Below are positions 2,951 through 18,224 of a DNA stretch of 64,000 nt, piece after piece; position 1 is the first letter of the stretch, and each line of letters begins with the position of its first letter. The position numbers were made by a program, and so were the translations under genes. Source of the DNA: Candidatus Hopanoidivoransaceae bacterium (GTDB taxonomy: Bacteria > Actinomycetota > Acidimicrobiia > Acidimicrobiales > Hopanoidiivorantaceae). The stretch is from NCBI GenBank assembly GCA_965204495.1, contig OZ241989.1:1504312-1568311 (forward strand), written 5' to 3'. The notes under the pieces were generated by a model. That model was not told where the DNA came from. It saw nothing but the letters and a program-made list of their open reading frames with translations, and did not search any database.

Positions 2951-3667
2951 TTGAGCGAGTCTCTCTTTCTGCTGGCTGCGGCTATTATTCTTGTCGGGGC
3001 GACTATTCAGGGGGTGGCGGGGTTCGGCATGAATGTGCTGGGGGCGCCACTGCTGTTTTTGATTGAACCTTCGCTGGTGCCGGGGTCTATCATTCTGGCG
3101 GCTCTGCTGCATACTGTGCTTTCGGCTTGGCGGGAGCGGGGGGAGATCAACTTTCGGATGGTGTCTTGGATGTTCGCCGGCACGATACCTGGCATTATCG
3201 CAGGGGCTTTGGCGCTCAGGGTTTTGACCGAAAACGGGTCGGCTCTGCTGATCGCCATCGTGATCCTCTCGGCTGTGACGATCATGACTTTCGGGCTGGT
3301 GCCGCCGTTCAACCGAGGCACAACGGCAGCTACAGGGCTGGTGGCCGGATTTTCGGGTTCTACATCTGCAGTCTCGGGGCCGGTGGTGGCTTTGTTCTTG
3401 TCGCAGATGCCGGGGCCGCAGCTGCGCAGCACTATGGCAGCTTATTTTCTGATTTCAGGATCTATCTCTTTGGTGACGCTTTCCCTGGTGGGCGAGTTCG
3501 GCGCGCAGCAGTTCGCCAGAGGCTTGCTGCTCTGGCCGCCCGTAGGCATAGGGTTTTTGCTGTCTTCGCCTCTGCGGAAATACTTGGATCGCGGCTATGT
3601 GCGCCCCGCCATCCTGACGATTTCGTCTTGCGCGGCAATCTCGCTGCTAGTGCGAGCCTTGGTCTAG
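2951..3667 (+). CDS. TSUP (TauE/SafE) family membrane transporter
   Basis: 238 aa polytopic membrane protein. The N-terminus GATIQGVAGFGMNVLGAPLL and a repeated half are typical of TauE/SafE. The start is TTG and is uncertain. Confidence 0.7.
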   Translation: MSESLFLLAAAIILVGATIQGVAGFGMNVLGAPLLFLIEPSLVPGSIILAALLHTVLSAWRERGEINFRMVSWMFAGTIPGIIAGALALRVLTENGSALLIAIVILSAVTIMTFGLVPPFNRGTTAATGLVAGFSGSTSAVSGPVVALFLSQMPGPQLRSTMAAYFLISGSISLVTLSLVGEFGAQQFARGLLLWPPVGIGFLLSSPLRKYLDRGYVRPAILTISSCAAISLLVRALV

Positions 3668-3764
3668 AGAGAAAAAGACAGGATCAAGACAACAGGATCA
3701 AGACATTGGAATTTTGACTAGAAATCTGACAGCAGGTTTGCGAGCTTTACGATACAATGGCTTC

Positions 3765-4001
3765 ATGGGCAAGAAAAGAAAGATATTCATTCTGTCAGCC
3801 TTGGCTGCTGGCATAGCCATCTTCTTCGGGCGCAAGCGCATGCGCTCCAAGGCAGATGATGCCGCCAGCGAAGGCGACTGGACACCCGACGAAGACGCTG
3901 CTGAAGACACCGCTCCCAGCGACAGTTCTGCCAGCGCAGACGCCGAGGGCAGTGCCGCAGAAGAAGATTCTGAAGAGGATTCTGAAGAGACAGGTGGCTG
4001 A
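3765..4001 (+). CDS. small hypothetical protein: one TM helix plus an acidic tail
   Basis: MGKKRKIFILSALAAGIAIFFGRKR is followed by a D/E/S/A-rich tail. The start is placed at the internal ATG. No homolog recognised. Confidence 0.4.
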   Translation: MGKKRKIFILSALAAGIAIFFGRKRMRSKADDAASEGDWTPDEDAAEDTAPSDSSASADAEGSAAEEDSEEDSEETGG

Positions 4002-4110
4002 TAGGAAGGCTGGCTGAAGGCGGCTAACAGCTAGCCAGAACTAACAGCTAGCCAGCAGTTCTAACTGTTCTATTCAGTAGTTCTATTCAGCATCTCTAGC
4101 CGGCAGGTAT

Positions 4111-5700
4111 CTAGCCGGCAGGTTCAGCTTTGGGCGGCAGGTTGATAGCTCGCACCTGTCTGACAGCAGCCAGATTTCGCAGCTTTTCCACAGTTTCGCT
4201 GTCGGCTGGCTTGTCGGTGGCCAGCAGGATCAACGCTTCGTTATCTTCGGCGACAGCGCCCACATCCATGTCTGAGATATTGATGCCCATCTCGCCCATG
4301 ACCTGGCCGATGGCCCCGATGACGCCGGGCTTGTCGTCGTTGCGTATGACCACCATGTGATCCGAGGGGGGCTGATCCACTCGGTGGCCTTCCAGCCAGA
4401 TGATGCGAGGCTCCGCTCGCACGCCCAGCAAAGCCCCGCCCACTCCGTGCCCGCCGCCTCGCAAAGTCACCTCGCTCACATAGTCTTTCGGGGCGGAGGT
4501 GTTGATGGCCCGAACTTCCAGCCCTCGGCTGCGGGCGATCTCTTCGGCATTCACATAGGAAACAGGGTCGTCGCAGACAGGGCTGAGCAAGCCGGTGAGC
4601 ATCGCCAGCATCCCCATCTTGGTGTCCACTTCGCCGATGAGTCCGCTGAATTCTATTTCCACCGTGTCGGGAAGGTTGCGAACGAGCGAACCGAAGATGC
4701 CGCCCAGAGTCTCGCACAGGGGCAGATACGGCAGAAGCTCTTCGGGGGTCTGGGCGGCGTGGATGTTCACGGCGAAGCGGGGCAGCTTGCCGGCCAGCAT
4801 GTTCCCGACTTGGGTAGCCACCGACACGCCCGCCTTCTCCTGCGCTTCCTTGGTGCTGGCTCCCAGATGCGGAGTCACGACCACACCCGGCAAGCCCAGC
4901 AGAGGCGAGCCTGCGGGCGGTTCCTCGTCGAACACATCTAGGGCCGCTCCAGCAACAACGCCGGCTTTGATGGCCTCGGCCAAGTCGGCCTCGTTGATGA
5001 TGCCCCCGCGCGATACATTCACTATCCGCAGCGTCGGCTTGGCTTTAGCTAGAAGCTCGGCGTTGACCATGCCAGTGGTCTCAGGGGTCTTGGCCACATG
5101 CAAGGTGATGAAATCCGCCTCTGCGAAAATCTCTTCTAAAGTCTTCGGCTCGGCACCCAGCTGGCGGAATCGGTCAAAAGATATATAAGGGTCGTAGGCG
5201 ACTATTCGCATGTGAAACGCCGCTGCTCGTTCGGCGATTAGCTGGCCGATCTGCCCGAAGCCCACGATGCCCAGAGTTTTCTCGGAAAGCTCTACGCCTT
5301 GGAACTGCGATCGGTTCCAGCCTCCGCCCACCAGATCGGCATGAGCTTGAGGAATGTGTCGGGCTTGGGAGAGAATCAGCCCCAAAGTGTGCTCGGCTGC
5401 GGAAATGGCATTGGCCCTGGGAGCATTCACCACCACGACGCCCCTAGCGGTGGCAGCTTCGGTGTCTACATTGTCCACTCCGATGCCGGCGCGTGCGATG
5501 ATCTTGAGCTGCTCGGCCGCAGCCAGCACTTCTTCTGTGACCTGAGTCTGCGAACGCACGATGAGCGCATCGCAGTCGGCCACGGCTTCCAGCAGCTCGG
5601 CAGGTTCAAGACCAAGCCGCACATCCACCAGATGCCCGGCCTCGCGCAGCTGCTCCAAGCCCGGCTCGGCGATTTTTTCGGCTACCAGAACTTTTGCCAT
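4111..5700 (-). CDS. serA: D-3-phosphoglycerate dehydrogenase with C-terminal ACT domain
   Basis: Has the NAD-binding motif GIVGFGQIGQLIA, 2-hydroxyacid dehydrogenase core motifs, and a long C-terminal ASB/ACT region. The start is set at MAKVLVAEK (ATG 5700) rather than the ORF-track start. Confidence 0.9.
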   Translation of the reverse strand: MAKVLVAEKIAEPGLEQLREAGHLVDVRLGLEPAELLEAVADCDALIVRSQTQVTEEVLAAAEQLKIIARAGIGVDNVDTEAATARGVVVVNAPRANAISAAEHTLGLILSQARHIPQAHADLVGGGWNRSQFQGVELSEKTLGIVGFGQIGQLIAERAAAFHMRIVAYDPYISFDRFRQLGAEPKTLEEIFAEADFITLHVAKTPETTGMVNAELLAKAKPTLRIVNVSRGGIINEADLAEAIKAGVVAGAALDVFDEEPPAGSPLLGLPGVVVTPHLGASTKEAQEKAGVSVATQVGNMLAGKLPRFAVNIHAAQTPEELLPYLPLCETLGGIFGSLVRNLPDTVEIEFSGLIGEVDTKMGMLAMLTGLLSPVCDDPVSYVNAEEIARSRGLEVRAINTSAPKDYVSEVTLRGGGHGVGGALLGVRAEPRIIWLEGHRVDQPPSDHMVVIRNDDKPGVIGAIGQVMGEMGINISDMDVGAVAEDNEALILLATDKPADSETVEKLRNLAAVRQVRAINLPPKAEPAG

Positions 5701-5746
5701 GACTTCTACTGTAGATATTTTTCGCAAGTAAGGCTAGCCCGATTTC
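5681..5746. repeat. direct repeat copy A (serA start/promoter block)
   Basis: gctaccagaacttttgccat...tgtagatatttttcgca...ggctagc..gattt recurs at 8635-8700 at roughly 80% identity. Confidence 0.85.
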
Positions 5747-8654
5747 AGGTGATGCCTGCGTGGCAGCTGTTTATGCTGGCGTCTGTGCCTATTGTGTTTT
5801 CCAAGGCAGAGGGTATTTCTGCTTGGCGGTTTCCTTTGAGGCAGACGATGCCTGCGGAAGAGCGGCAGAATGCTACGGATTTGTCGGCTTCCGTGATGCT
5901 GTCTGCTGTGCTGTGGCGGAGAGGGGCGAATCCGAGCATCGAGCAGATCATGTTCTGCCTGTCCAATGCCGGTGCTGAGGTCTGCGGGCGGGCGGAGATC
6001 GCTATGGAGACTCGCCCTCTGAGAGCGTGCCCGCCTGAGGATGTGTAGGGGATGGTGAAGGCGGCCGTGCCGGCGGCGTCTCCTGCGGTGATTTTGTAGC
6101 TGCAGCCTGTGTTGGTGATGCGGGTGATTTTGGCATCGCGGTCGGCGGCGTTCGCGCAGGTTATGTCGTAGGCGCCGTCTGTGGCGTAGCTGGCAGCGTT
6201 TATGGTCATAGTGCCGCCAGCGGTCATAGACAGATCGCTGGGCGCGGTGAAGACGATTGTGGAAGCAGCGCCTATTTCTATGCTTATGACGCCGTTTTGG
6301 GTGTGTCCGCCTGAAGAGGTGTAAGGCACGGTGAAAGTCGCTGTGCCTGTGGCGCCGGTGGGCGTGACGGAGAAATCGCAGATTTTGGGATTCGGGCGCG
6401 CAACGGTTATCTTGCTGTCCACGCTGATGGCGTTGCCGCAGGTGATGTAGTAGTTGCCGTCTGAGGCGTAGTCGCTGGCATTCAAAGCGAGGGTGCGGTT
6501 GGTTCCCAGTTTGAGTCCTGTGGGCGCGGTGTAGGAGATGGTGGAAGCCGGGCCTATTTCTATGGTGAAGACTCCGCTTGTGGAGCCGCCGCCGGCGGAG
6601 GTGTAGGGCAAGGTGAAGCTGGCAATGCCTTGAGCGCCTGTAGGCGTGACGGTGAAGACGCAATTCCTCCGGCTGAGGCTGATCTTGGAATCCACATCTG
6701 TAGTAGTTCTGCAGGAGATTCTGTAGCCGCCGTCGGACGCGTAATCCCGACCATTGATCGTGAGAGTCCGGTTCGTGGCCAGCTGAAATTCGTCGGGCTC
6801 AGAGAAGACGAGAACAGAAGGCGGCGGAGGGCTGATTCGGATGGAAATCATGCCGCCTGTGGTGTATCCGCCTGAGGAAATATAAGGAACTCTGAAGGCG
6901 GCAATGCCGACCGAGGAACCCGCTCGGATCGTATAGCTGCAGCCTTTGCGCGTTACGGTGATTTTGCTGTCTATGCGGCGGGTGTCAAGACAGAAGAGAG
7001 CGAGGTCGCTGTCTGCCAGCGTTGCGTACGAAGAGGCGTCTATGGTGATGCTTCGGTTTGGTGCTACAGCTAGGGCTATAGGAGGGGTAAAATTGATGGC
7101 GCCATTGATGTTGTCCGTCAGCTTGGCTCCTATAGCAATATTGACAGATGCTGTGGCCCCGCCGGAGGAGGAGTAGCCGACTGCGAGGTTCAAGTCTCTT
7201 GACGAGTAGCTGGGACCGGATTGAAATTTAATGATGCACCCGTTGCGACTGACTTTTAGGGTAAAAGCAGCTGCAGCTCCTGAAAATCTGTGGCTTGTGC
7301 ATGTGATGTCGTAGTCGCCGTCTGTGGCATAGCGGGCGGCGTCTATAGTTATGACTCGGTCTCTTCGGATCAGAAATTGAGGATTGCTGGCCAAGGTGAT
7401 GCTGGAGGCGGTGCCGATGGTTAGGGAGACCACGCCGCTGTGAGTGTCGCCGCCGGAGGAGGTGTAGGGCACGGTGAAAGTGGCGATGCCAGCAGTGCCG
7501 CCTGCGGTTATTGAGACAGAGCAGCCGGCGTCGTTGATGCTGTCGATGGGAGCATGGGATCGGATGTTGGCGATGAGAGCATGGGATTGTCTGATGGTTC
7601 CGCACGAAATAGTATCGCTGCCGTCTGAAGCATAATCGGCAGCATTGATCCGTATAGTGCTGTAGATGCCCACAGACAGACCCGCAGGCGCGGTATAGAC
7701 GATGTGGGAGGCAACTATTGTGATGTCTATCCTGTCCGTGCGAGCGCTGCCGCTTGCAGAAGTGTAGGGCACGCTGAAGCTGGCTCTGCCTGTGGTGTTG
7801 CCTGCGGTTATGTTATAGACGCAGCCGTTGCGGGAGCTGACGGTGATCTTGGAATCCACAGCAGTCGCATCGCCGCAGAACACAGGATAGCCGCCTTGAT
7901 CGTAGGCGTAGCTGCCCGCGTCAATCGTGATAGTGCCGCCCGTGCGCACTCTGAGATTGGATACGCGCTGATAGAAAAGGACGGACGAAGGGCCGATAAT
8001 GAGAGGAATGACGCCTGTCTGCTCGTCTCCGCCAGAGGAGTGGTAGCGCACCGTCACTGTGGCCGCGCCTTGAGTAGAGCCGGCCCACACCCTGAAGCTG
8101 CAGCCAGTTGCGGTTACCGAGGCGAGGAGTCGGTGCCGGTTAGCCGGGTTGGCATTGAAGCTGCATGTTATGGCATAGTCGCCGTCTGTGGCATAGCCGG
8201 AGACATCAATTATTTTAGATCTGCCTGTACCTATGGGTATGCTCGCTGGAGCGGTGAAAGTGATATCGGAAGCAGCGGTGATAGCTATCGTGAAGGTCGC
8301 GCTGTGAGTGTCGCCGCCAGAAGAAGTCAAAAGGGTGGTGAAGGTGGCATTGCCCGTCGGGGCAGTGGCTGAGGCATTGACGGTGAAAAAGCAGCTGTTG
8401 GCGGCATTTTGGGCAACGGTGATCCTGGTGGAATCCACAGCAGTGGGAGCTCCGCAAGTGAAAGTGTTGGAGCCGTCTCTGGCAAAGCCTGCAGCGTAAA
8501 TGATGTAGCCTGTTCGCCCTGCTGGAATCGTGAGGTTGGTAGGGGCGGTGAAAACGATGTTGGAAGTCTGCGCTGATGCTTGGTCGGCAAATGAGGCGGA
8601 TGCCGTAAATAGCACCGATCCGAACAAAGCCAGAGCTACCAGAACTTTTGGCAT
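5745..8654 (-). CDS. secreted protein with ~9 tandem Ig-like/adhesin-type repeats (~95 aa each)
   Basis: Signal peptide MPKVLVALALFGSVLFTASASFA. It is followed by a reiterated unit: TFTAP..L....G.T.TI.A..YA.DG.Y.ITCG....VDSKITV.....C.F.VT..GA.G.A.FTVPYTSSGG.T..GVISI.IG. The last ~85 aa are non-repeat. Confidence 0.75.
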   Translation of the reverse strand: MPKVLVALALFGSVLFTASASFADQASAQTSNIVFTAPTNLTIPAGRTGYIIYAAGFARDGSNTFTCGAPTAVDSTRITVAQNAANSCFFTVNASATAPTGNATFTTLLTSSGGDTHSATFTIAITAASDITFTAPASIPIGTGRSKIIDVSGYATDGDYAITCSFNANPANRHRLLASVTATGCSFRVWAGSTQGAATVTVRYHSSGGDEQTGVIPLIIGPSSVLFYQRVSNLRVRTGGTITIDAGSYAYDQGGYPVFCGDATAVDSKITVSSRNGCVYNITAGNTTGRASFSVPYTSASGSARTDRIDITIVASHIVYTAPAGLSVGIYSTIRINAADYASDGSDTISCGTIRQSHALIANIRSHAPIDSINDAGCSVSITAGGTAGIATFTVPYTSSGGDTHSGVVSLTIGTASSITLASNPQFLIRRDRVITIDAARYATDGDYDITCTSHRFSGAAAAFTLKVSRNGCIIKFQSGPSYSSRDLNLAVGYSSSGGATASVNIAIGAKLTDNINGAINFTPPIALAVAPNRSITIDASSYATLADSDLALFCLDTRRIDSKITVTRKGCSYTIRAGSSVGIAAFRVPYISSGGYTTGGMISIRISPPPPSVLVFSEPDEFQLATNRTLTINGRDYASDGGYRISCRTTTDVDSKISLSRRNCVFTVTPTGAQGIASFTLPYTSAGGGSTSGVFTIEIGPASTISYTAPTGLKLGTNRTLALNASDYASDGNYYITCGNAISVDSKITVARPNPKICDFSVTPTGATGTATFTVPYTSSGGHTQNGVISIEIGAASTIVFTAPSDLSMTAGGTMTINAASYATDGAYDITCANAADRDAKITRITNTGCSYKITAGDAAGTAAFTIPYTSSGGHALRGRVSIAISARPQTSAPALDRQNMICSMLGFAPLRHSTADSITEADKSVAFCRSSAGIVCLKGNRQAEIPSALENTIGTDASINSCHAGIT
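6000..8560 (-). repeat. tandem coding repeats (~285 nt period) inside the Ig-like repeat gene
   Basis: The peptide unit recurs about nine times in the 5745-8654 translation. Confidence 0.8.
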
Positions 8655-8700
8655 CGCTTCCTATTGTAGATATTTTTCGCAGATATGGCTAGCATGATTT
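8635..8700. repeat. direct repeat copy B (start region of repeat-protein gene and amidohydrolase gene)
   Basis: Partner of 5681-5746. It contains the start codons of both divergent genes (MPKVLVA on the minus strand, ATGGCTAGCATG on the plus strand). Confidence 0.85.
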
Positions 8701-9905
8701 GCATGACCACAACAAACACTTCCATTGATCTGGGCTTTGCGGCTTTTGACGCAGACAACCACTACTACGAAGCGGAGGATGCCTTCATCCGCCACATGGA
8801 GCCTTCCATGGCCAAACGCTGCATGCAGTGGGCCGACATAGACGGCCGCAAACGGCTGCTGGTGGGCGGCAAGATCAACCGCTTCATCCCCAACCCCACT
8901 TTTGATCCCATCGCCCGTCCGGGCAGCTTGGACGACTACTTCAGAGGCAAGCAGTCGTCAGACGACATTCGCTCGGCTTTCGGCGAACTGGAAAAGCTTT
9001 CCGACCGCCCTGAATATCGCGACCGCAGCAAGCGGCTAGAGCACATGGACGGCCAAGGCATAGAGTCGGCTTTCTTCTTTCCCACTCTGGGGGTGGGCAT
9101 GGAGTCGGCGATGAAGAACGACCTGCCGGCGATGCGAACGGCCTTTCGGGCGTTCAACCGCTGGCTCAGCGAAGACTGGGGCTTCGCCCATCAAGACCGC
9201 ATCATCGCCGCCCCTTACATCACCCTCTCGGATGTGGATGAAGCTTGCCAAGAGCTGGAATGGGCGTTGGCCGAAGACTGCAGGGTCGTGAATCTGAGGG
9301 CTTCCTCGGTGCTCACCGACGACGGCTATGCCCATCTGGGCGACCCTCGCCACGATCCGTTCTGGGCGCGTGCCAACGAAGCTGGCATCGTGGTGGCTTT
9401 CCACTCCGGCGACGCAGGCTATGAGTTTCTGTATGAGCTTTGGGGCTTCAAGACCGAGTTTGAGGCTTTCCGCCAAGACCCGCTCAAGGCGATGCTCTGC
9501 ATGGCCCCCATCGCCGACACGATGGCTTCTCTGATCGGCGGCCAGGTGTTCGCCCGCTTCCCGAATTTGCGGGTCGCCACCATTGAGACGGGTTCGCACT
9601 GGGTGCAGCCGCTGTTCTATCGCATGAACAAGGCTTTCAAGCAGCAGAAGCACGCTTTCGCCGAAGATCCGATTGAGACTTTTCGCCGGCATATCTGGGT
9701 GGCCCCCTTCTATGAAGACGACATGACTGAGCTGGCAGAACTGGTGGGCGTGGATCACATGATCTTCGGTTCCGACTATCCTCATGCGGAAGGCTTGAGC
9801 GATCCGTTGGCGTTCGTGCACGACCTCAAGGGCTTCTCGGATGACGACATCCACAAGGTGATGCGCACCAACGGCATGTCGCTCATCCAGCGTCAGCCGG
9901 CTTAG
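8685..9905 (+). CDS. amidohydrolase-2 family (ACMSD-like TIM-barrel metal hydrolase)
   Basis: 406 aa with FDADNHYYE near the N-terminus and FGSDYPHAEG near the C-terminus, typical of this family. Confidence 0.8.
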   Translation: MASMICMTTTNTSIDLGFAAFDADNHYYEAEDAFIRHMEPSMAKRCMQWADIDGRKRLLVGGKINRFIPNPTFDPIARPGSLDDYFRGKQSSDDIRSAFGELEKLSDRPEYRDRSKRLEHMDGQGIESAFFFPTLGVGMESAMKNDLPAMRTAFRAFNRWLSEDWGFAHQDRIIAAPYITLSDVDEACQELEWALAEDCRVVNLRASSVLTDDGYAHLGDPRHDPFWARANEAGIVVAFHSGDAGYEFLYELWGFKTEFEAFRQDPLKAMLCMAPIADTMASLIGGQVFARFPNLRVATIETGSHWVQPLFYRMNKAFKQQKHAFAEDPIETFRRHIWVAPFYEDDMTELAELVGVDHMIFGSDYPHAEGLSDPLAFVHDLKGFSDDDIHKVMRTNGMSLIQRQPA

Positions 9906-9975
9906 CAGCAGGCGGCCGCAGCCGGTAAGTTTCACTGCCTCTTTTGAGGCTTTGCTGAGAGAGCTGCGAAGCTTC

Positions 9976-10086
9976 ATGGGATTTGACCCGACTCGCCAGC
10001 ACAGTCGGTCATACCTCGACTACTGGCTGGTCGCTTTGGCACTGCTGCTGATTGCCGGTCTTGTGCTTTGGGCTGTTTTAGGATAG
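9976..10086 (+). CDS. possible 36-aa single-TM peptide upstream of sdhC
   Basis: MGFDPTRQHSRSYLDYWLVALALLLIAGLVLWAVLG. Support is only ORF shape and hydrophobicity. Confidence 0.25.
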   Translation: MGFDPTRQHSRSYLDYWLVALALLLIAGLVLWAVLG

Positions 10087-10182
10087 TTGCTGATGGCATC
10101 TGCATCCACCGAGCAGGCCGCCCCGAGAGCAGCACAGCGGGCGACTTCGCCTAGAGCGACACTGCCGCCGACCTCGGCTGAG

Positions 10183-10979
10183 ATGCCCGTGCATCCGAAA
10201 CCCAAGGTGAGGCTGCCTTGGCCGCTTTCCGTCTATCAGTCGGCGGTGGGGAAGAAATGGGTGATGGCCGTCACGGGGATTGCCCTGCTGGGGTTCGTGC
10301 TGGTTCATATGATCGGCAATCTGCACCTCTACGAAGGGCCTGTCCATCTCAGCGAGTATGCCGAAGCGTTGCGCGATCTGGGCGGCGACATCGTGCCTCG
10401 CACTTGGATTCTCTGGGCGATGCGGATAGGGCTGATAGCAGCGTTCGGGCTGCATATTCATTCGGCTTGGAGCTTGACGGTGATGAGCCGCAGAGCAGAC
10501 GCTTCTTATGTGGGCGGGCGGGGGTATGCGTCTGCTTCTTATGCCTCTCGCACGATGCGCTGGACCGGGCCGATCATTCTGCTCTATCTCTTCTATCATC
10601 TGGCCGATCTGACTTGGGGCTGGTTCAATCCCGACTTCGTGCGAGGCGACCCTTATCACAATGTGGTGGCGAGCCTCAGCAATGTGCCCGTGGCGATTTT
10701 GTATGTGGTGGCCAATGTCGCCCTGGCCATTCACATCTATCACGGGGCTTGGAGCATGTTCCAGAGCCTCGGGGTGAACAGCCCGAAGCTCAACCCGCTG
10801 CGGCGCAGGTTCGCTCAGGGTTTTGCCGCCGTCATCCTCGTCGGCAATCTCAGCTTTCCGATTTTCGTGCAGGCTGAGGTGATAGACGACGGGGGAGTGT
10901 CGGTGGTGCGCGAACACGAGGCGCAGATGGAAGAGGCGAATGTATCAGCAATGGAGACAGCATCATCGGAGGCATCGCC

Positions 10980-14466: not shown

Positions 14467-16179
14467 TTAGATCAAATAGCTGTATTTGTCTCTGAAGTTG
14501 TGTAGGGCTTGGACTAGCAGATCGTCGGCGCCTTCGGTTTCTACTACTCGGTCGCAGAGGGCTAGGAGCTTGGCGGATTCTTCCATGTCTAGGAAGGGGG
14601 CCACTTTTGTGCGGATCATTATGATGTCGGCGGCCAGATAGGGGGGAAGTTCGGGGTGGGGGTCGGTCGCCGACTTTTCCAGAGACTCGTCATGGACGGT
14701 GGTTTTGGCGTTGTCGGAAGTTTCAACCAGTTTGCGCTTTTCTTGGTGATCGTCTTCGGGCACTCGTGCGGCCAGCAGGGATGTCTGGTTTAGCGGGTCG
14801 GAGACATCCACATGCATGATGCCGTCGGTGTCGTAGCGGTAGGTGATGTCGAAAAGGCACTGGCTCATGGGCTTGGGGCTGGTGATGGGCACTCGCCAGT
14901 GCTGCAGCTCCACGCTGCCGAGGTCGTCGGGCGGTTTCGTGGGGTCGCCTTCCATGACGGCAAGGTTCAGCCACTCTTGATGATCCACCACAGGGGAGAA
15001 ACGCTCGGTGCCTCTGGCCGGCAAGCCTTGGTTGCGTGGGATGATGGTGGAGAAGTGCGGCTTGGCTTCCAAGTGCGAAACCGCCAGCACGCCCAAGGCA
15101 TGTTGAGTGGTGACTTGGAAGTTGTAGTCGGACATCTCGCCCTGCAGGATTGCCGAGGCGACAGCTGCGCCTTCGGCCGTTGCGGTCATCGGGTTGGAAA
15201 CCGGGCTGATCGGCAGCTGGGCGACTTCTGCGATGAAGCTCTGCACTGCGGGTATCTGGGATGTGCCCCCCACCAGCACGAGCGAATCTATCTGCAAAAG
15301 CATGTCGGCTTCGGCCACATCTGCGAGACATCGCTCCACAGGCTCTCGCGCCCGCTGCAGCAGCGGCCGGATCAGATCTTCAAACTTCAAGCGAGAAAGA
15401 CGGACGGACTCGCCGCGTGGAAGCCTTATGGAGACTTCCTGTTCGGTGCTGAGCAAGATTTTGGCTCGCTCGGCTTCTAGGCGGAGGAAGCCTTTTTCGG
15501 CTTGCGAATAGTTTCTGATCTCTTCCAAGGTGTCGCTCAACCATCCCATTATGGCCGTGTCGAAGTCCACGCCGCCCAATGTGGAGACGCCTGCCGAGGT
15601 GCGTTCCACGAAGCGGTTGTTGCGGGTTTCCAGCACGGTCACATCCAGCGTGCCGCCGCCCCAGTCCACCACCATGACGGTTTCGGTCTGGCCTTTGGTG
15701 GCTGCCATGGCTGCCGCTGTGGGTTCGTTGATGAGGGCGAGGACTTTGATATTGGCCATGCCGGCGCAGGTTTTCGTGCGCTTGCGAGCGTTGCCTCGGC
15801 TGTTGGCGGGGATTGTGACCACCGACTTGTCAAAGTGCACTCCCGATTCCAAGGCTGCGGATTTGCGAAGCTGTGCGAACAGGTAAGTGCTGATCTCGTT
15901 GAGGGTGAAGCTTTCATTGCCGACCATAGCGTGCTCTTCGGCGAAGAAGAAGCGCTTGATGGCTTCTATCTTCTGCCTCGGCGGTAGCAGTTTGGCTTCC
16001 CAGCCGAAGAGAGGCTTGTTCTGGTCGTCAAGGCCGAACACGGAAGGGAACAGCAGGTCGTGGCCCAGCTCGCCCCATTCCATAGGCGGCTCGCCGATGC
16101 GGACGGTGTTGATCTCGCCGTTCTCAAAGACGGAGACCACGCAGTTGGTGGTGCCGAAGTCTATGCCTATGGCTGCCAT
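14467..16179 (-). CDS. non-canonical Hsp70 family protein (short C-terminus)
   Basis: MAAIGIDFGTTNCVV and other actin-fold ATPase motifs (DWGGGTLDV, LVGGTSQIP), followed by a beta substrate-binding-like domain. It is 570 aa, shorter than DnaK. Confidence 0.85.
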   Translation of the reverse strand: MAAIGIDFGTTNCVVSVFENGEINTVRIGEPPMEWGELGHDLLFPSVFGLDDQNKPLFGWEAKLLPPRQKIEAIKRFFFAEEHAMVGNESFTLNEISTYLFAQLRKSAALESGVHFDKSVVTIPANSRGNARKRTKTCAGMANIKVLALINEPTAAAMAATKGQTETVMVVDWGGGTLDVTVLETRNNRFVERTSAGVSTLGGVDFDTAIMGWLSDTLEEIRNYSQAEKGFLRLEAERAKILLSTEQEVSIRLPRGESVRLSRLKFEDLIRPLLQRAREPVERCLADVAEADMLLQIDSLVLVGGTSQIPAVQSFIAEVAQLPISPVSNPMTATAEGAAVASAILQGEMSDYNFQVTTQHALGVLAVSHLEAKPHFSTIIPRNQGLPARGTERFSPVVDHQEWLNLAVMEGDPTKPPDDLGSVELQHWRVPITSPKPMSQCLFDITYRYDTDGIMHVDVSDPLNQTSLLAARVPEDDHQEKRKLVETSDNAKTTVHDESLEKSATDPHPELPPYLAADIIMIRTKVAPFLDMEESAKLLALCDRVVETEGADDLLVQALHNFRDKYSYLI

Positions 16180-16228
16180 CGGTCGCTCTCTGCTTTCATG
16201 CTTGTTGCTTTAACGCTTGTTTTCGTGT

Positions 16229-17125
16229 TCATCCTGCGCCCTTTTCTGCGCCCGTGGCTGTGCTCGTTTCAGTGCTGGTTTCTGTGCTCATTTCCGCAGC
16301 GACTTTGGCTGTGCTTGCCGTAGTGTTTGCTGCTGTGCTTGCCGTCGTGATTTCGGCTGTGCTTGCCTTAATGCCTTCGGATGTGCTTGCCATAGTTGCT
16401 TCCGCAAGGCCGCGAGCCACAAGCATAGTGCGCCCGTCTGCGTTGGCGGCTATGTATGCGGGGCGTAGCACTCGGATTGTCTGGCCGCTGCCCGACACAT
16501 CAAAGTCTGCTTTGTGCTCTTCGCTGTAGTCGGCCACGATGGTGCCGCCCGCTCTGCGGAACATGTCTTCCAGTTCGGCCACGATGGGCTGGGTTTCGCT
16601 GGCGCCCAGAGAGAGCGAATGGAGATACGAGAGGTCGGTGAGGTGCTTGCGCCGCTCGCCCGCGCTGGCTACCACAGCTTGGCGAAACTCGGCAAAAGTC
16701 TCAGACGCCGCATCGCCCGCAGCCTGCTCGGAGACGAGCATGAGAGTAAGGCGCTCGGTGTCGCTGATGAGCTGCTCCAAAAGCTGCTTTCTGCTGTGGC
16801 GGGGCTTTTTGGCGGATTGTCTGGCGGCAGGAAGGCTGCCGGGGTTGCTATCGTGGCGGTCGTGGTTGCTGTCGTGGGTGCTGTGGTTGCTATCGTGGCT
16901 GCCGTGGCTGCTGCGGGCATTCTTGCCAGCCCGAGTATTTTTCGGGGCCGCAGCATCCCTAGGGGCAGAATCATAGCCCTGCCCAGAAGCCGCCGCCAGC
17001 TGCCTGCGAATGCCCAGCAGGGCCTCGCAAGCCTCCGCCGTCTTAGGCTCCCGCTGCCGTAGCATCTCAGACACCCGAGCCAACTCCAAAGCCAGCGAGT
17101 GAAGCAAAAAGTTACGAGATTTCAT
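16229..17125 (-). CDS. hypothetical protein, possibly GrpE-like, co-oriented upstream of the Hsp70
   Basis: Has helical N-terminal/central regions and a C-terminal segment GQTIRVLRPAYI that resembles the GrpE signature RVLRPA. Two low-complexity inserts (HDSNH repeats, STETSTETST). Confidence 0.35.
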   Translation of the reverse strand: MKSRNFLLHSLALELARVSEMLRQREPKTAEACEALLGIRRQLAAASGQGYDSAPRDAAAPKNTRAGKNARSSHGSHDSNHSTHDSNHDRHDSNPGSLPAARQSAKKPRHSRKQLLEQLISDTERLTLMLVSEQAAGDAASETFAEFRQAVVASAGERRKHLTDLSYLHSLSLGASETQPIVAELEDMFRRAGGTIVADYSEEHKADFDVSGSGQTIRVLRPAYIAANADGRTMLVARGLAEATMASTSEGIKASTAEITTASTAANTTASTAKVAAEMSTETSTETSTATGAEKGAG

Positions 17126-17216
17126 CTTCGGTCAGTTCCAAGCAAGGAGGTTAGTTGGTTCCAAGGAATAGCAAAAACTCTTTAAACATCAGACCCAACA
17201 AAGTCATTCCGCCAAA

Positions 17217-18224
17217 TTATAGCAAACCCAGTTCTGCCACTGCATCTCTTTCTTCTAGCAGCTCTGCTACTGAGCGGTCTATGTGCTCGCGGCTGACGCT
17301 GTTTATTTCCAACCCTTCCACAATGGTGTAGCTGCCTTCTTTTGTGGTGCAGGGGAATGAAGAGATGATGCCTTCGGGCACGCCGTAGCTGCCGTCTGAG
17401 GGCACCGACATGCTTACCCAGTCGTCGGGCGGGCTGGTGATCGCCCAGTCGTTTATATGGTCTATGACGGCGTTGGCTGCTGAGGCCGCGCTGGAGGCCC
17501 CGCGTGCTTCAATCACGGCTGCGCCGCGCTGCTGGACTGTGGGGATGAAGTCGTTGAAGATCCAGTTTTCGTCGTCTATGACCTCGGCGGCGGGCTGGCC
17601 GTCTATGAGGCAGTTGTAGATGTCGGGGTATTGGGTGGCGGAATGGTTGCCCCAGATGGTCATCTGCGAGATGTCGCTCACTGCCACGCCGCATTTCTGG
17701 CTTATCTGCGCCAGAGCTCGGTTGTGATCCAGGCGGGTCATGGCGGTGAAGCGTTCTTGGGGGATGTCGGGGGCTGAGGATTTGGCGATGAGGCAGTTGG
17801 TGTTGGCGGGGTTGCCCACCACCAGCACTCGGATGTCTGGGGCGGCATGGCTGTTGAGGGCTTGGCCTTGGGCTGTGAAGATGGCGCCGTTGGCGCTGAT
17901 GAGGTCTTTGCGCTCCATGCCTTTGGTGCGGGGGCGGCTTCCCACCAGCAGAGCGCAGCTTATGTCGGCGAAGGCTTTGTTCGGGTCGTCTGAGAGTTCC
18001 AAGCCTGCGAGCAGCGGGAAGGCGCAGTCTTCAATCTCCATCGCCACGCCTTCCAGCGCGCCCATCGCTGGCGGTATTTCCAGAAGCTGAAGGATGATCG
18101 GCCGGTCTTCGCCCAGAAGCTGGCCTGTGGCGATGCGGAAGACGAGACTGTAGCCGATCTGCCCTGCCGCCCCTGTGACGGCTACGCGAACTGGTTGTTT
18201 GGCTGGCTGTTTGGCTGGCGACAT
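17217..18224 (-). CDS. mdh: malate dehydrogenase (NAD-dependent)
   Basis: [34 protein letters not shown]. Confidence 0.95.

Follow-up and report, generated by a model that had tools for sequence, protein, structure and literature searches.

The 64,000-nucleotide (nt) stretch analyzed here (the window; contig OZ241989.1 of Candidatus Hopanoidivoransaceae bacterium) carries a gene of 969 codons for an immunoglobulin (Ig)-like repeat protein, wedged between serA and a divergently transcribed amidohydrolase gene. The repeat-protein gene starts on a duplicated copy of the serA start codon, and a 65-bp segment made of the serA start codons and the adjoining spacer flanks it on both sides. Local segmental duplication with a join-point fusion and promoter capture is the favored origin, at a probability of about 75%; it would have given the new gene a duplicated serA promoter and start. 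Capture of a housekeeping start with its upstream signals by gene insertion or duplication, as the original prediction had proposed from the bare sequence, is borne out, the use of the promoter being a prediction. The elements of the locus are as follows.

4111-5700, minus strand: serA, a type I D-3-phosphoglycerate dehydrogenase of 529 amino acids (aa) that starts MAKVLVA (Pfam and orthology)
5681-5745: copy A of the duplicated segment, serA codons (5681-5700) plus a 45-nt spacer (5701-5745)
5745-8654, minus strand: repeat-protein gene, 969 aa, starting MPKVLVA (translation)
5746-8634, minus strand: insert proper, 2889 bp, paralog-derived coding sequence (CDS) from codon 8 to the stop (paralog homology)
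5748-5969, minus strand: C-terminal domain of 74 aa with four Cys, common to the paralogs, which stop at the same position
5970-8561, minus strand: nine Ig-like repeats of ~95 aa with two conserved Cys each (repeat alignment)
5' end of the repeat-protein gene, minus strand: predicted chimeric signal peptide MPKVLVA/LALFGSVLFTASASFA (translation)
8635-8700: copy B of the duplicated segment, start codons of the repeat-protein gene (8635-8654) plus spacer (8655-8700)
8685-9905 according to gene callers, conserved start at 8703, plus strand: amidohydrolase (PF04909; Pfam and alignment of relatives)

Copies A and B are direct repeats, identical at 56 of 65 positions with one 1-nt indel, which confirms the earlier estimate of a ~66-bp duplication at ~80% identity. 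Their local alignment scores 44, against 11.0±1.5 (maximum 18) for shuffled sequence and 12.3±1.7 (maximum 17) for 500 real 470-nt windows drawn from the same sequence, and a repeat search over the window lists the same two blocks. The similarity breaks off sharply at both ends. To the left, copy A runs into serA and copy B into the repeat-protein gene; to the right, the amidohydrolase follows copy B, and copy A is followed by the 3' end of the repeat-protein gene. Of serA the repeat takes in codons 1-6 and two bases of codon 7; the other 45 nt are spacer. Chance resemblance or faulty assembly, suggested by nothing but the shortness of the repeat, has a negligible probability: the score lies more than 20 standard deviations above the shuffles, and the two-copy structure with identical junctions recurs, with sequence polymorphism, in 10 assemblies from 4 samples. 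Eight of these are further assemblies of the same species (3 samples, two copies of the core motif in each) and another represents the sister lineage L095, in which both copies and both junctions match those of the window species, so that an assembly artefact does not explain them.

Relatives without the gene display the ancestral arrangement, as the comparison suggested with the original prediction anticipated. serA and the amidohydrolase are directly divergent in L089 and L090 (amidohydrolase 90% identical to that of the window), L091 (84%) and L009 (82%), and the two genes are also adjacent in six marine Acidimicrobiia at ~60% (L010, L011, L012, L014, L016 and L034). Relatives lacking the gene do not carry both copies of the segment; a single recognizable copy is present in L089, L090 and L009, and the motif count is exactly one in L089 and L090. 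A blastn comparison makes the relationship explicit, as L089 7938-7998 matches both window 8640-8700 and window 5685-5745. Conversely, the order serA, 969-aa gene, amidohydrolase is found in all 8 further assemblies of the window species. Copies A and B share bases that are derived relative to the outgroups (GCTACC versus GTGAYC, TTTTTCGCA versus TTTTTTGCK, and GATTT versus GAATT), which places the duplication inside the window/L095 lineage.

The copy-B junction shows where the two parents of the gene were joined. Homology to the paralogs P0147, P0153 and P0149 extends from 8635/8636 to ~7414-7434 at 79-81% nt identity. Homology to P0147 (in L092) starts at CTCTGGCTTTGTTCGG (window 8635/8634), directly after the serA-derived ATGCCAAAAGTTCTGGTAGC, and at most 1 nt is common to both parents at this point. 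The junction falls in frame between codons 7 and 8, where the donor-type N-terminus (...RKPLALAAS) is exchanged for M-P-K-V-L-V-A. As proposed earlier, the gene therefore starts MPKVLVA on the duplicated serA start: no start codon comes between the upstream in-frame stop and ATG 8654, which is also the only ATG open to this open reading frame (ORF), and paralog homology begins only at 8635. By its sequence the protein could begin only at this borrowed ATG, or at a downstream TTG or GTG that would leave it without a charged n-region. Codon 2 varies by strain and encodes A, P or T.

At the opposite junction, the TGA stop (5745-5747), previously placed inside copy A, sits at its edge and abuts it with a one-base overlap. 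The paralog P0132 reads ...ATCAGATAGAAAT at its stop, and up to 4-5 nt (AAAT) of microhomology at the stop-codon junction is possible but unproven. The insert thus delimited brings no promoter, start codon, 3' untranslated region or terminator with it. It consists of one truncated CDS, with no transposase or integrase gene, no inverted repeats pairing its ends and no attC-like element. Moreover, no terminator-like site was found near 5700-5750, between the repeat-protein gene and serA, making read-through possible.

What the duplicated segment could supply is suggested by its promoter layout. On the minus strand, a -10-like TACAGT (5713-5708) lies 7 nt before the serA ATG, and a -10 box TACAAT (8668-8663) lies 8 nt before ATG 8654 of the repeat-protein gene, with a -35-like TAGCCA (8691-8686) 17 nt further up. 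On the plus strand, TAGCAT (8690-8695) lies 7 nt before the amidohydrolase ATG 8703. The -10 boxes and their spacings are kept in L009, L089 and L090 though the rest of the spacer has diverged. Across the window, TANNNT stands 6-8 nt before the candidate start of 10 of 46 likely genes and at spacings of 0-5 or 9-11 nt in none of the 46; elsewhere the average is ~0.6 genes per spacing. In Mycobacterium tuberculosis, TANNNT is found 7-12 bp upstream of 73% of primary transcription starts, and leaderless genes make up 22-26% of the total (Cortes et al. 2013, PMC3898074). The duplicated 65 bp plausibly form a complete expression unit, so that a fragment lacking both promoter and start codon could become a gene. 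A second divergent pair in the window has TANNNT 7-8 nt before each ATG (19570, minus; 19666, plus); it consists of an isocitrate/isopropylmalate dehydrogenase family gene and an acyl-CoA dehydrogenase gene and has the look of a compact bidirectional region of leaderless-type promoters.

Several details of the spacer differ from the original prediction. The conserved amidohydrolase start is ATG 8703 (MTTT...), as in P0002, P0003 and P0004, and lies 2 nt past the repeat. The divergent spacer is accordingly ~45-48 nt and not ~30 nt, and the repeat does not span the first amidohydrolase codons. Two further in-frame ATGs upstream of it, at 8685 and 8694, are confined to the window/L095 clade. The proposed decay of ATGGCTAGC in copy B to AAGGCTAGC in copy A has the wrong polarity, since the outgroups and the L095 copy A read ACGGCTAGC. 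At the 8685 position the triplet is ACG in the outgroups and in the L095 copy A, ATG in copy B of both lineages, and AAG only in most copies A of the window species. ATG 8685 is therefore a derived feature of copy B and not a lost ancestral start, and the amidohydrolase may have acquired it after the duplication as an alternative leaderless start. In strain L006, copy A (L006 7016-7061) reads GCAGATATGG as in copy B, with ATG at this position, where copy A of other strains reads GCAAGTAAGG; this could reflect either gene conversion between the copies or a retained ancestral polymorphism.

Copy A has also changed where its inherited amidohydrolase promoter would face the new gene. The old -10 box (5735-5740) reads TAGCCC in all 9 assemblies and in L095, its final T gone; in the outgroups the box reads TAGCCT or TAGTCT. 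Such a change is consistent with the silencing of a promoter whose transcripts would otherwise run antisense into the repeat-protein gene.

A candidate source for the insert lies close by in the sister lineage. L095 is 92% identical in nucleotide sequence to the window over ~7 kb, and its gene order is TauE, P0153 (minus), a small ORF, serA (minus), repeat-protein gene (minus), amidohydrolase. P0153 is thus ~2 kb from the insertion site and is read in the same direction as serA and the repeat-protein gene. By blastn, L095 1-6879 corresponds to window 10679-3732 and L095 10088-12334 to window 3666-1388, leaving one interval that differs:

Window 3667-3731 (65 nt), versus L095 6880-10087 (3.2 kb, holding P0153): site of the missing donor-type segment (blastn)

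In the more distant relative L096 a paralog also adjoins TauE. Because a paralog stands beside TauE in both L095 and L096, it was most likely lost from the window lineage, after the duplicate had become fixed. Apart from the repeat-protein gene itself, no member of the family is present elsewhere in the 64-kb window.

The 5' 1.2 kb of the repeat-protein gene is 81% identical in nucleotide sequence to P0153, with a synonymous divergence (dS) of 0.29. For comparison, dS is 0.22-0.26 between the window and L095 for the flanking genes, 0.37 between P0153 and P0147, and 0.63-0.89 between the window and L089/L090. The repeat-protein gene is therefore nearer to its neighbor P0153 than P0153 is to P0147, and its distance from P0153, lying between those of the two species splits, is consistent with a gene that the window species and L095 have and L089 and L090 lack.

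The neighborhood of the paralogs is itself variable. The same paralog is found beside a luciferase-like gene and leuA in L092, beside the small ORF/serA and TauE in L095, and beside a luciferase-like gene and TauE in L096; in L089 and L090, leuA stands next to the small ORF and serA with no paralog. The position of the paralog at synteny breakpoints suggests paralog-mediated rearrangements.

Taken together, these observations would be accounted for by the following sequence of events, the order of which is proposed rather than seen. In the ancestor, serA and the amidohydrolase would have diverged from a ~48-nt spacer holding two back-to-back leaderless-type promoters. Once the L089/L090 lineage had branched off, but while L095 and the window lineage were still one, a neighboring Ig-like-repeat paralog would have been copied locally and come to lie between two copies of the 65-bp segment S (serA start codons plus spacer). 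A tandem duplication of a ~5-kb unit comprising paralog, small ORF, serA and S may have come first; a remodeling deletion in the second unit would then have removed the 5' end of the paralog, the small ORF and the body of serA, from paralog codon ~33 through serA codon 8, and thereby have joined serA codon 7, in frame, to paralog codon ~33. A template switch in one step could yield the same product. Duplication followed by deletion reproduces both junctions, the direct orientation and the apparent 65-bp target duplication, and the copy would be stable because recombination between paralog and copy would delete serA.

In this arrangement copy A would keep serA expressed and copy B the amidohydrolase, and the other strand of copy B would offer the new gene a complete promoter and an ATG. 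The first seven residues, M-A/P/T-K-V-L-V-A, would contribute the charged n-region and the beginning of the hydrophobic core of a Sec-type signal peptide. Later, the antisense amidohydrolase -10 box in copy A would have lost its essential T, purifying selection would have kept the new gene intact, and the donor copy would have been deleted from the window lineage.

The same product could have arisen by insertion in one step with a true target-site duplication, through nicks 65 nt apart or a staggered break, fill-in and end joining of a paralog fragment, or through a microhomology-mediated double template switch. The functional outcome, capture of promoter and start, would be equal, and only the mutational path would differ. 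The topology of the locus is exactly that of a target-site duplication, junction microhomology is minimal (≤1 nt at 8634/8635, possibly AAAT at the stop), the mosaic make-up of the gene fits multi-template switching, and a second paralog, P0132, also has a flanking duplication, of 44 bp. However, a donor-type gene 2 kb away in direct orientation is what tandem duplication and deletion predict, as is the P0132 duplicate, which carries part of its neighbor's upstream gene. Capture of a precise, in-frame fragment consisting only of CDS would be improbable as a single random event unless it was strongly selected. Insertion in one step is a tentative alternative, possible and rather unlikely.

A mobile element or horizontal transfer (transposon, integron cassette, phage, or integrative and conjugative element), with the repeats as att sites or target-site duplications, would account for an insert between direct repeats and for a gene family that is patchy and lineage-restricted. 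It is effectively excluded by the nature of both parts. The insert is a 5'-truncated CDS that ends at its stop codon and lacks the genes and terminal structures of such elements, and the sequences closest to it are paralogs carried by this genome and by sister genomes. The repeat consists of the host's serA start and spacer, which relatives have in one copy, and at 65 bp is far longer than the target duplications of insertion sequences and transposons, which are typically 2-14 bp. The direct-orientation paralog 2 kb away and the homology edge at copy B argue instead for local segmental duplication. Two other routes were considered and set aside. Retro-insertion of a cDNA, prompted by the 5' truncation and the long duplication, would place the 3' end at the end of a transcript and not at a stop codon, and the context showed no sign of a reverse transcriptase. 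Campbell-type integration of a circular molecule bearing the segment is less parsimonious, because each junction would still have to be made beforehand by an illegitimate event.

Several points weigh against the preferred origin by local duplication and promoter capture. Resemblance to P0153 is confined to the 5' 1.2 kb of the gene and does not extend to the 3' 60%. Repeats 5-6 have no close match (≤42% aa identity), and repeats 7-9 with the C-terminal domain are 57-76% identical to another paralog class, P0127/P0132, the 3' 1 kb being 73% identical to the P0132 gene. These differing affinities make the copy a mosaic, and tandem duplication of today's P0153 alone would not explain why the gene ends, at its 3' junction, with the stop codon of another C-terminal domain. 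The 5' likeness to P0153 could itself come from later gene conversion by the neighbor. An intermediate genome with the full tandem duplication was not found among the genomes compared. The amidohydrolase start is ambiguous, in that TATTTT lies 8 nt before ATG 8685 and TAGCAT 7 nt before ATG 8703. Finally, promoter activity, leaderless translation and secretion are predictions read from sequence alone.

A second locus in the same species bears on how the family spreads. P0132 (L093 4001-7252, contig ctg394284) lies between 44-bp direct repeats (3857-3900 and 7301-7344) that are identical at 42 of 44 positions and score 40 against 11±1.3 for shuffles. The downstream repeat copy forms the 3' end of a minus-strand gene of 84 aa. 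Behind the upstream copy comes a stretch ~90% identical to the 3' end of the neighboring DoxX gene, the intergenic region that follows and the first part of the next paralog (8125-8288). P0132 represents another local duplicative insertion within the family, of younger date, and its locus supports local duplication as a family habit. Flanking direct repeats were not found around P0147 (L092), P0153 (L095) or P0149 (L096). It is doubtful that the 65-bp and 44-bp flanks, instead of being side effects of normal duplication and deletion, are the signature of a recurrent, family-specific duplicative process that spreads promoter-less surface-protein fragments into leaderless promoter regions. If such a process existed, any in-frame landing would be expressed at once, promoter and ATG being a unit of ~20-30 nt; and if the native paralogs were phase-variable through their poly-C tracts, the serA-fused copy would be a 'locked-on' version. 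Immediately before their called ATG, P0147 and P0153 have a tract of 10-11 C (L092 ~3981-3991 and L095 ~6980-6989, respectively); the ORFs of P0149 and P0154 begin further upstream (MNNRHIAPPPVSS...) and read through the C tract, which is absent from the serA-fused copy. In the native paralogs the tract looks like a slipped-strand phase-variation switch.

The ORF of the new gene is intact in all ten assemblies, and the ratio of nonsynonymous to synonymous divergence (dN/dS) is 0.30 among strains and 0.42 against L095, compared with 0.03-0.07 for serA and 0-0.04 for the amidohydrolase. By these ratios the gene is constrained by purifying selection yet fast-evolving. Its dS between the window (5745-8654) and L095 (2021-4930) is 0.11, about half as high as for serA (0.26) or the amidohydrolase (0.22), which could stem from gene conversion, from constraints on composition or from recombination between the lineages.

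By inspection, the N-terminus of the repeat protein, MPKVLVALALFGSVLFTASASFA, resembles a signal peptide, with Lys3, a hydrophobic core of ~14 residues and ASA/SFA motifs, and the repeats are predicted beta-sandwiches: the AlphaFold2 model of one repeat has a pLDDT (per-residue confidence) of 94, and its best fold matches in the Protein Data Bank are PKD, Rib and SraP-type domains, with moderate similarity (TM-score 0.6-0.68, E≥1e-3). No cell-surface anchor was recognized: the protein has no LPXTG motif, lipobox or hydrophobic tail, and its C-terminal 4-Cys domain appears soluble. Inspection thus supports secretion; surface anchoring is unproven, and 'secreted' is the safer word. Neither the repeat nor the 4-Cys C-terminal domain matches any Pfam or NCBIfam family at E≤0.01. 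A search of 5.8 billion clusters returned 87 homologs, nearly all from the same kind of metagenome and many fused to leucine-rich repeats (LRRs).

SerA has four Pfam domains (2-Hacid_dh, 2-Hacid_dh_C, PGDH_inter and ACT), all above cut-offs, and sdhCAB follows the amidohydrolase on the plus strand. Amidohydrolase similarity puts the organism among sponge-associated Acidimicrobiia, the nearest named relative being Candidatus Hopanoidivorans cymbastelae (82% aa identity). Rfam models detected no known RNA element in the spacer; over 3500-10500 the single match was a sub-threshold one to the Mycobacterium small RNA Ms_AS-1 (8823-8899, minus; 28.7 bits, gathering threshold 37; E=0.016), which lies antisense within the amidohydrolase and is probably due to chance. 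A first scan of JGI metagenomes for the spacer pattern returned no match, and a looser one returned a single AT-rich chance match (L094). Gene content downstream of sdhB varies among strains (L001/L003/L005 ~15750-17500; window equivalent ~14.4-17.2 kb). Some carry an AAA_14/DUF4143 gene there and two carry very large proteins (L003 20307+, L004 18530+; 1889 and 2239 aa, the latter with LRRs), all absent from the window strain. The two large proteins were considered as donors and rejected, as the parts compared have no similarity to the repeat protein.

The locus belongs to a known class of event, segmental duplication with join-point fusion and promoter capture, and is no new molecular system; a literature search on promoter capture with leaderless divergent genes returned nothing relevant. 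The encoded protein is comparable to Ig-like adhesins (PKD, Rib, Big and SraP) and to the LRR proteins of sponge symbionts (PMC11706023) in having a predicted signal peptide and tandem ~95-aa beta-sandwich domains, with paralogs that carry LRRs; it differs from the adhesins in matching no Pfam or NCBIfam model, in its moderate fold similarity and in lacking LPXTG or another recognized anchor. Sponge-symbiotic Acidimicrobiia have been reported to be enriched in eukaryotic-like, LRR-type proteins (PMC11706023). Ig-like and LRR proteins are thought to mediate host interaction in sponge symbionts, and the locus documents the expansion of one such lineage-restricted family by local duplication.

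The proposed promoters resemble the leaderless promoters of actinobacteria (PMC3898074), with TANNNT 7-8 nt before the ATG of serA, the repeat-protein gene and the amidohydrolase and no room for a Shine-Dalgarno sequence. Unlike the mapped promoters of M. tuberculosis, this layout is read from the DNA only and belongs to the class Acidimicrobiia. Where a genome has many leaderless genes, as little as 65 duplicated bp may bring along a promoter, a start codon and the beginning of a signal peptide, and a 5'-truncated coding fragment may turn into a working gene in one or two steps. As in a transposon target-site duplication, a single-copy target has become a direct repeat on both sides of an insert; here, in contrast, 65 bp are duplicated (44 bp in the case of P0132), transposase, terminal inverted repeats and defined ends are lacking, and the insert is a truncated host paralog.

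A close parallel is the work of Roth, Andersson and colleagues on his and lac amplification in Salmonella, in which tandem duplications are said to have produced join-point fusions and promoter capture, followed by remodeling deletions, and which reportedly underlies the innovation-amplification-divergence model. In both settings, a duplication junction would put a CDS under a foreign promoter, a later deletion would trim the redundancy, and the selected junction would be kept. Unlike the Salmonella amplifications, the window event is natural, fixed and old (dS ~0.3) and took place in an uncultured symbiont. Its fusion is in frame at codon 7 and reuses the start codon, and what was captured is one of two promoters, probably leaderless, that form a bidirectional pair. 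The locus is also unusually legible, for the ancestral state, with one copy of the segment, can be seen alongside the derived one, together with a donor-type gene and the two junctions.

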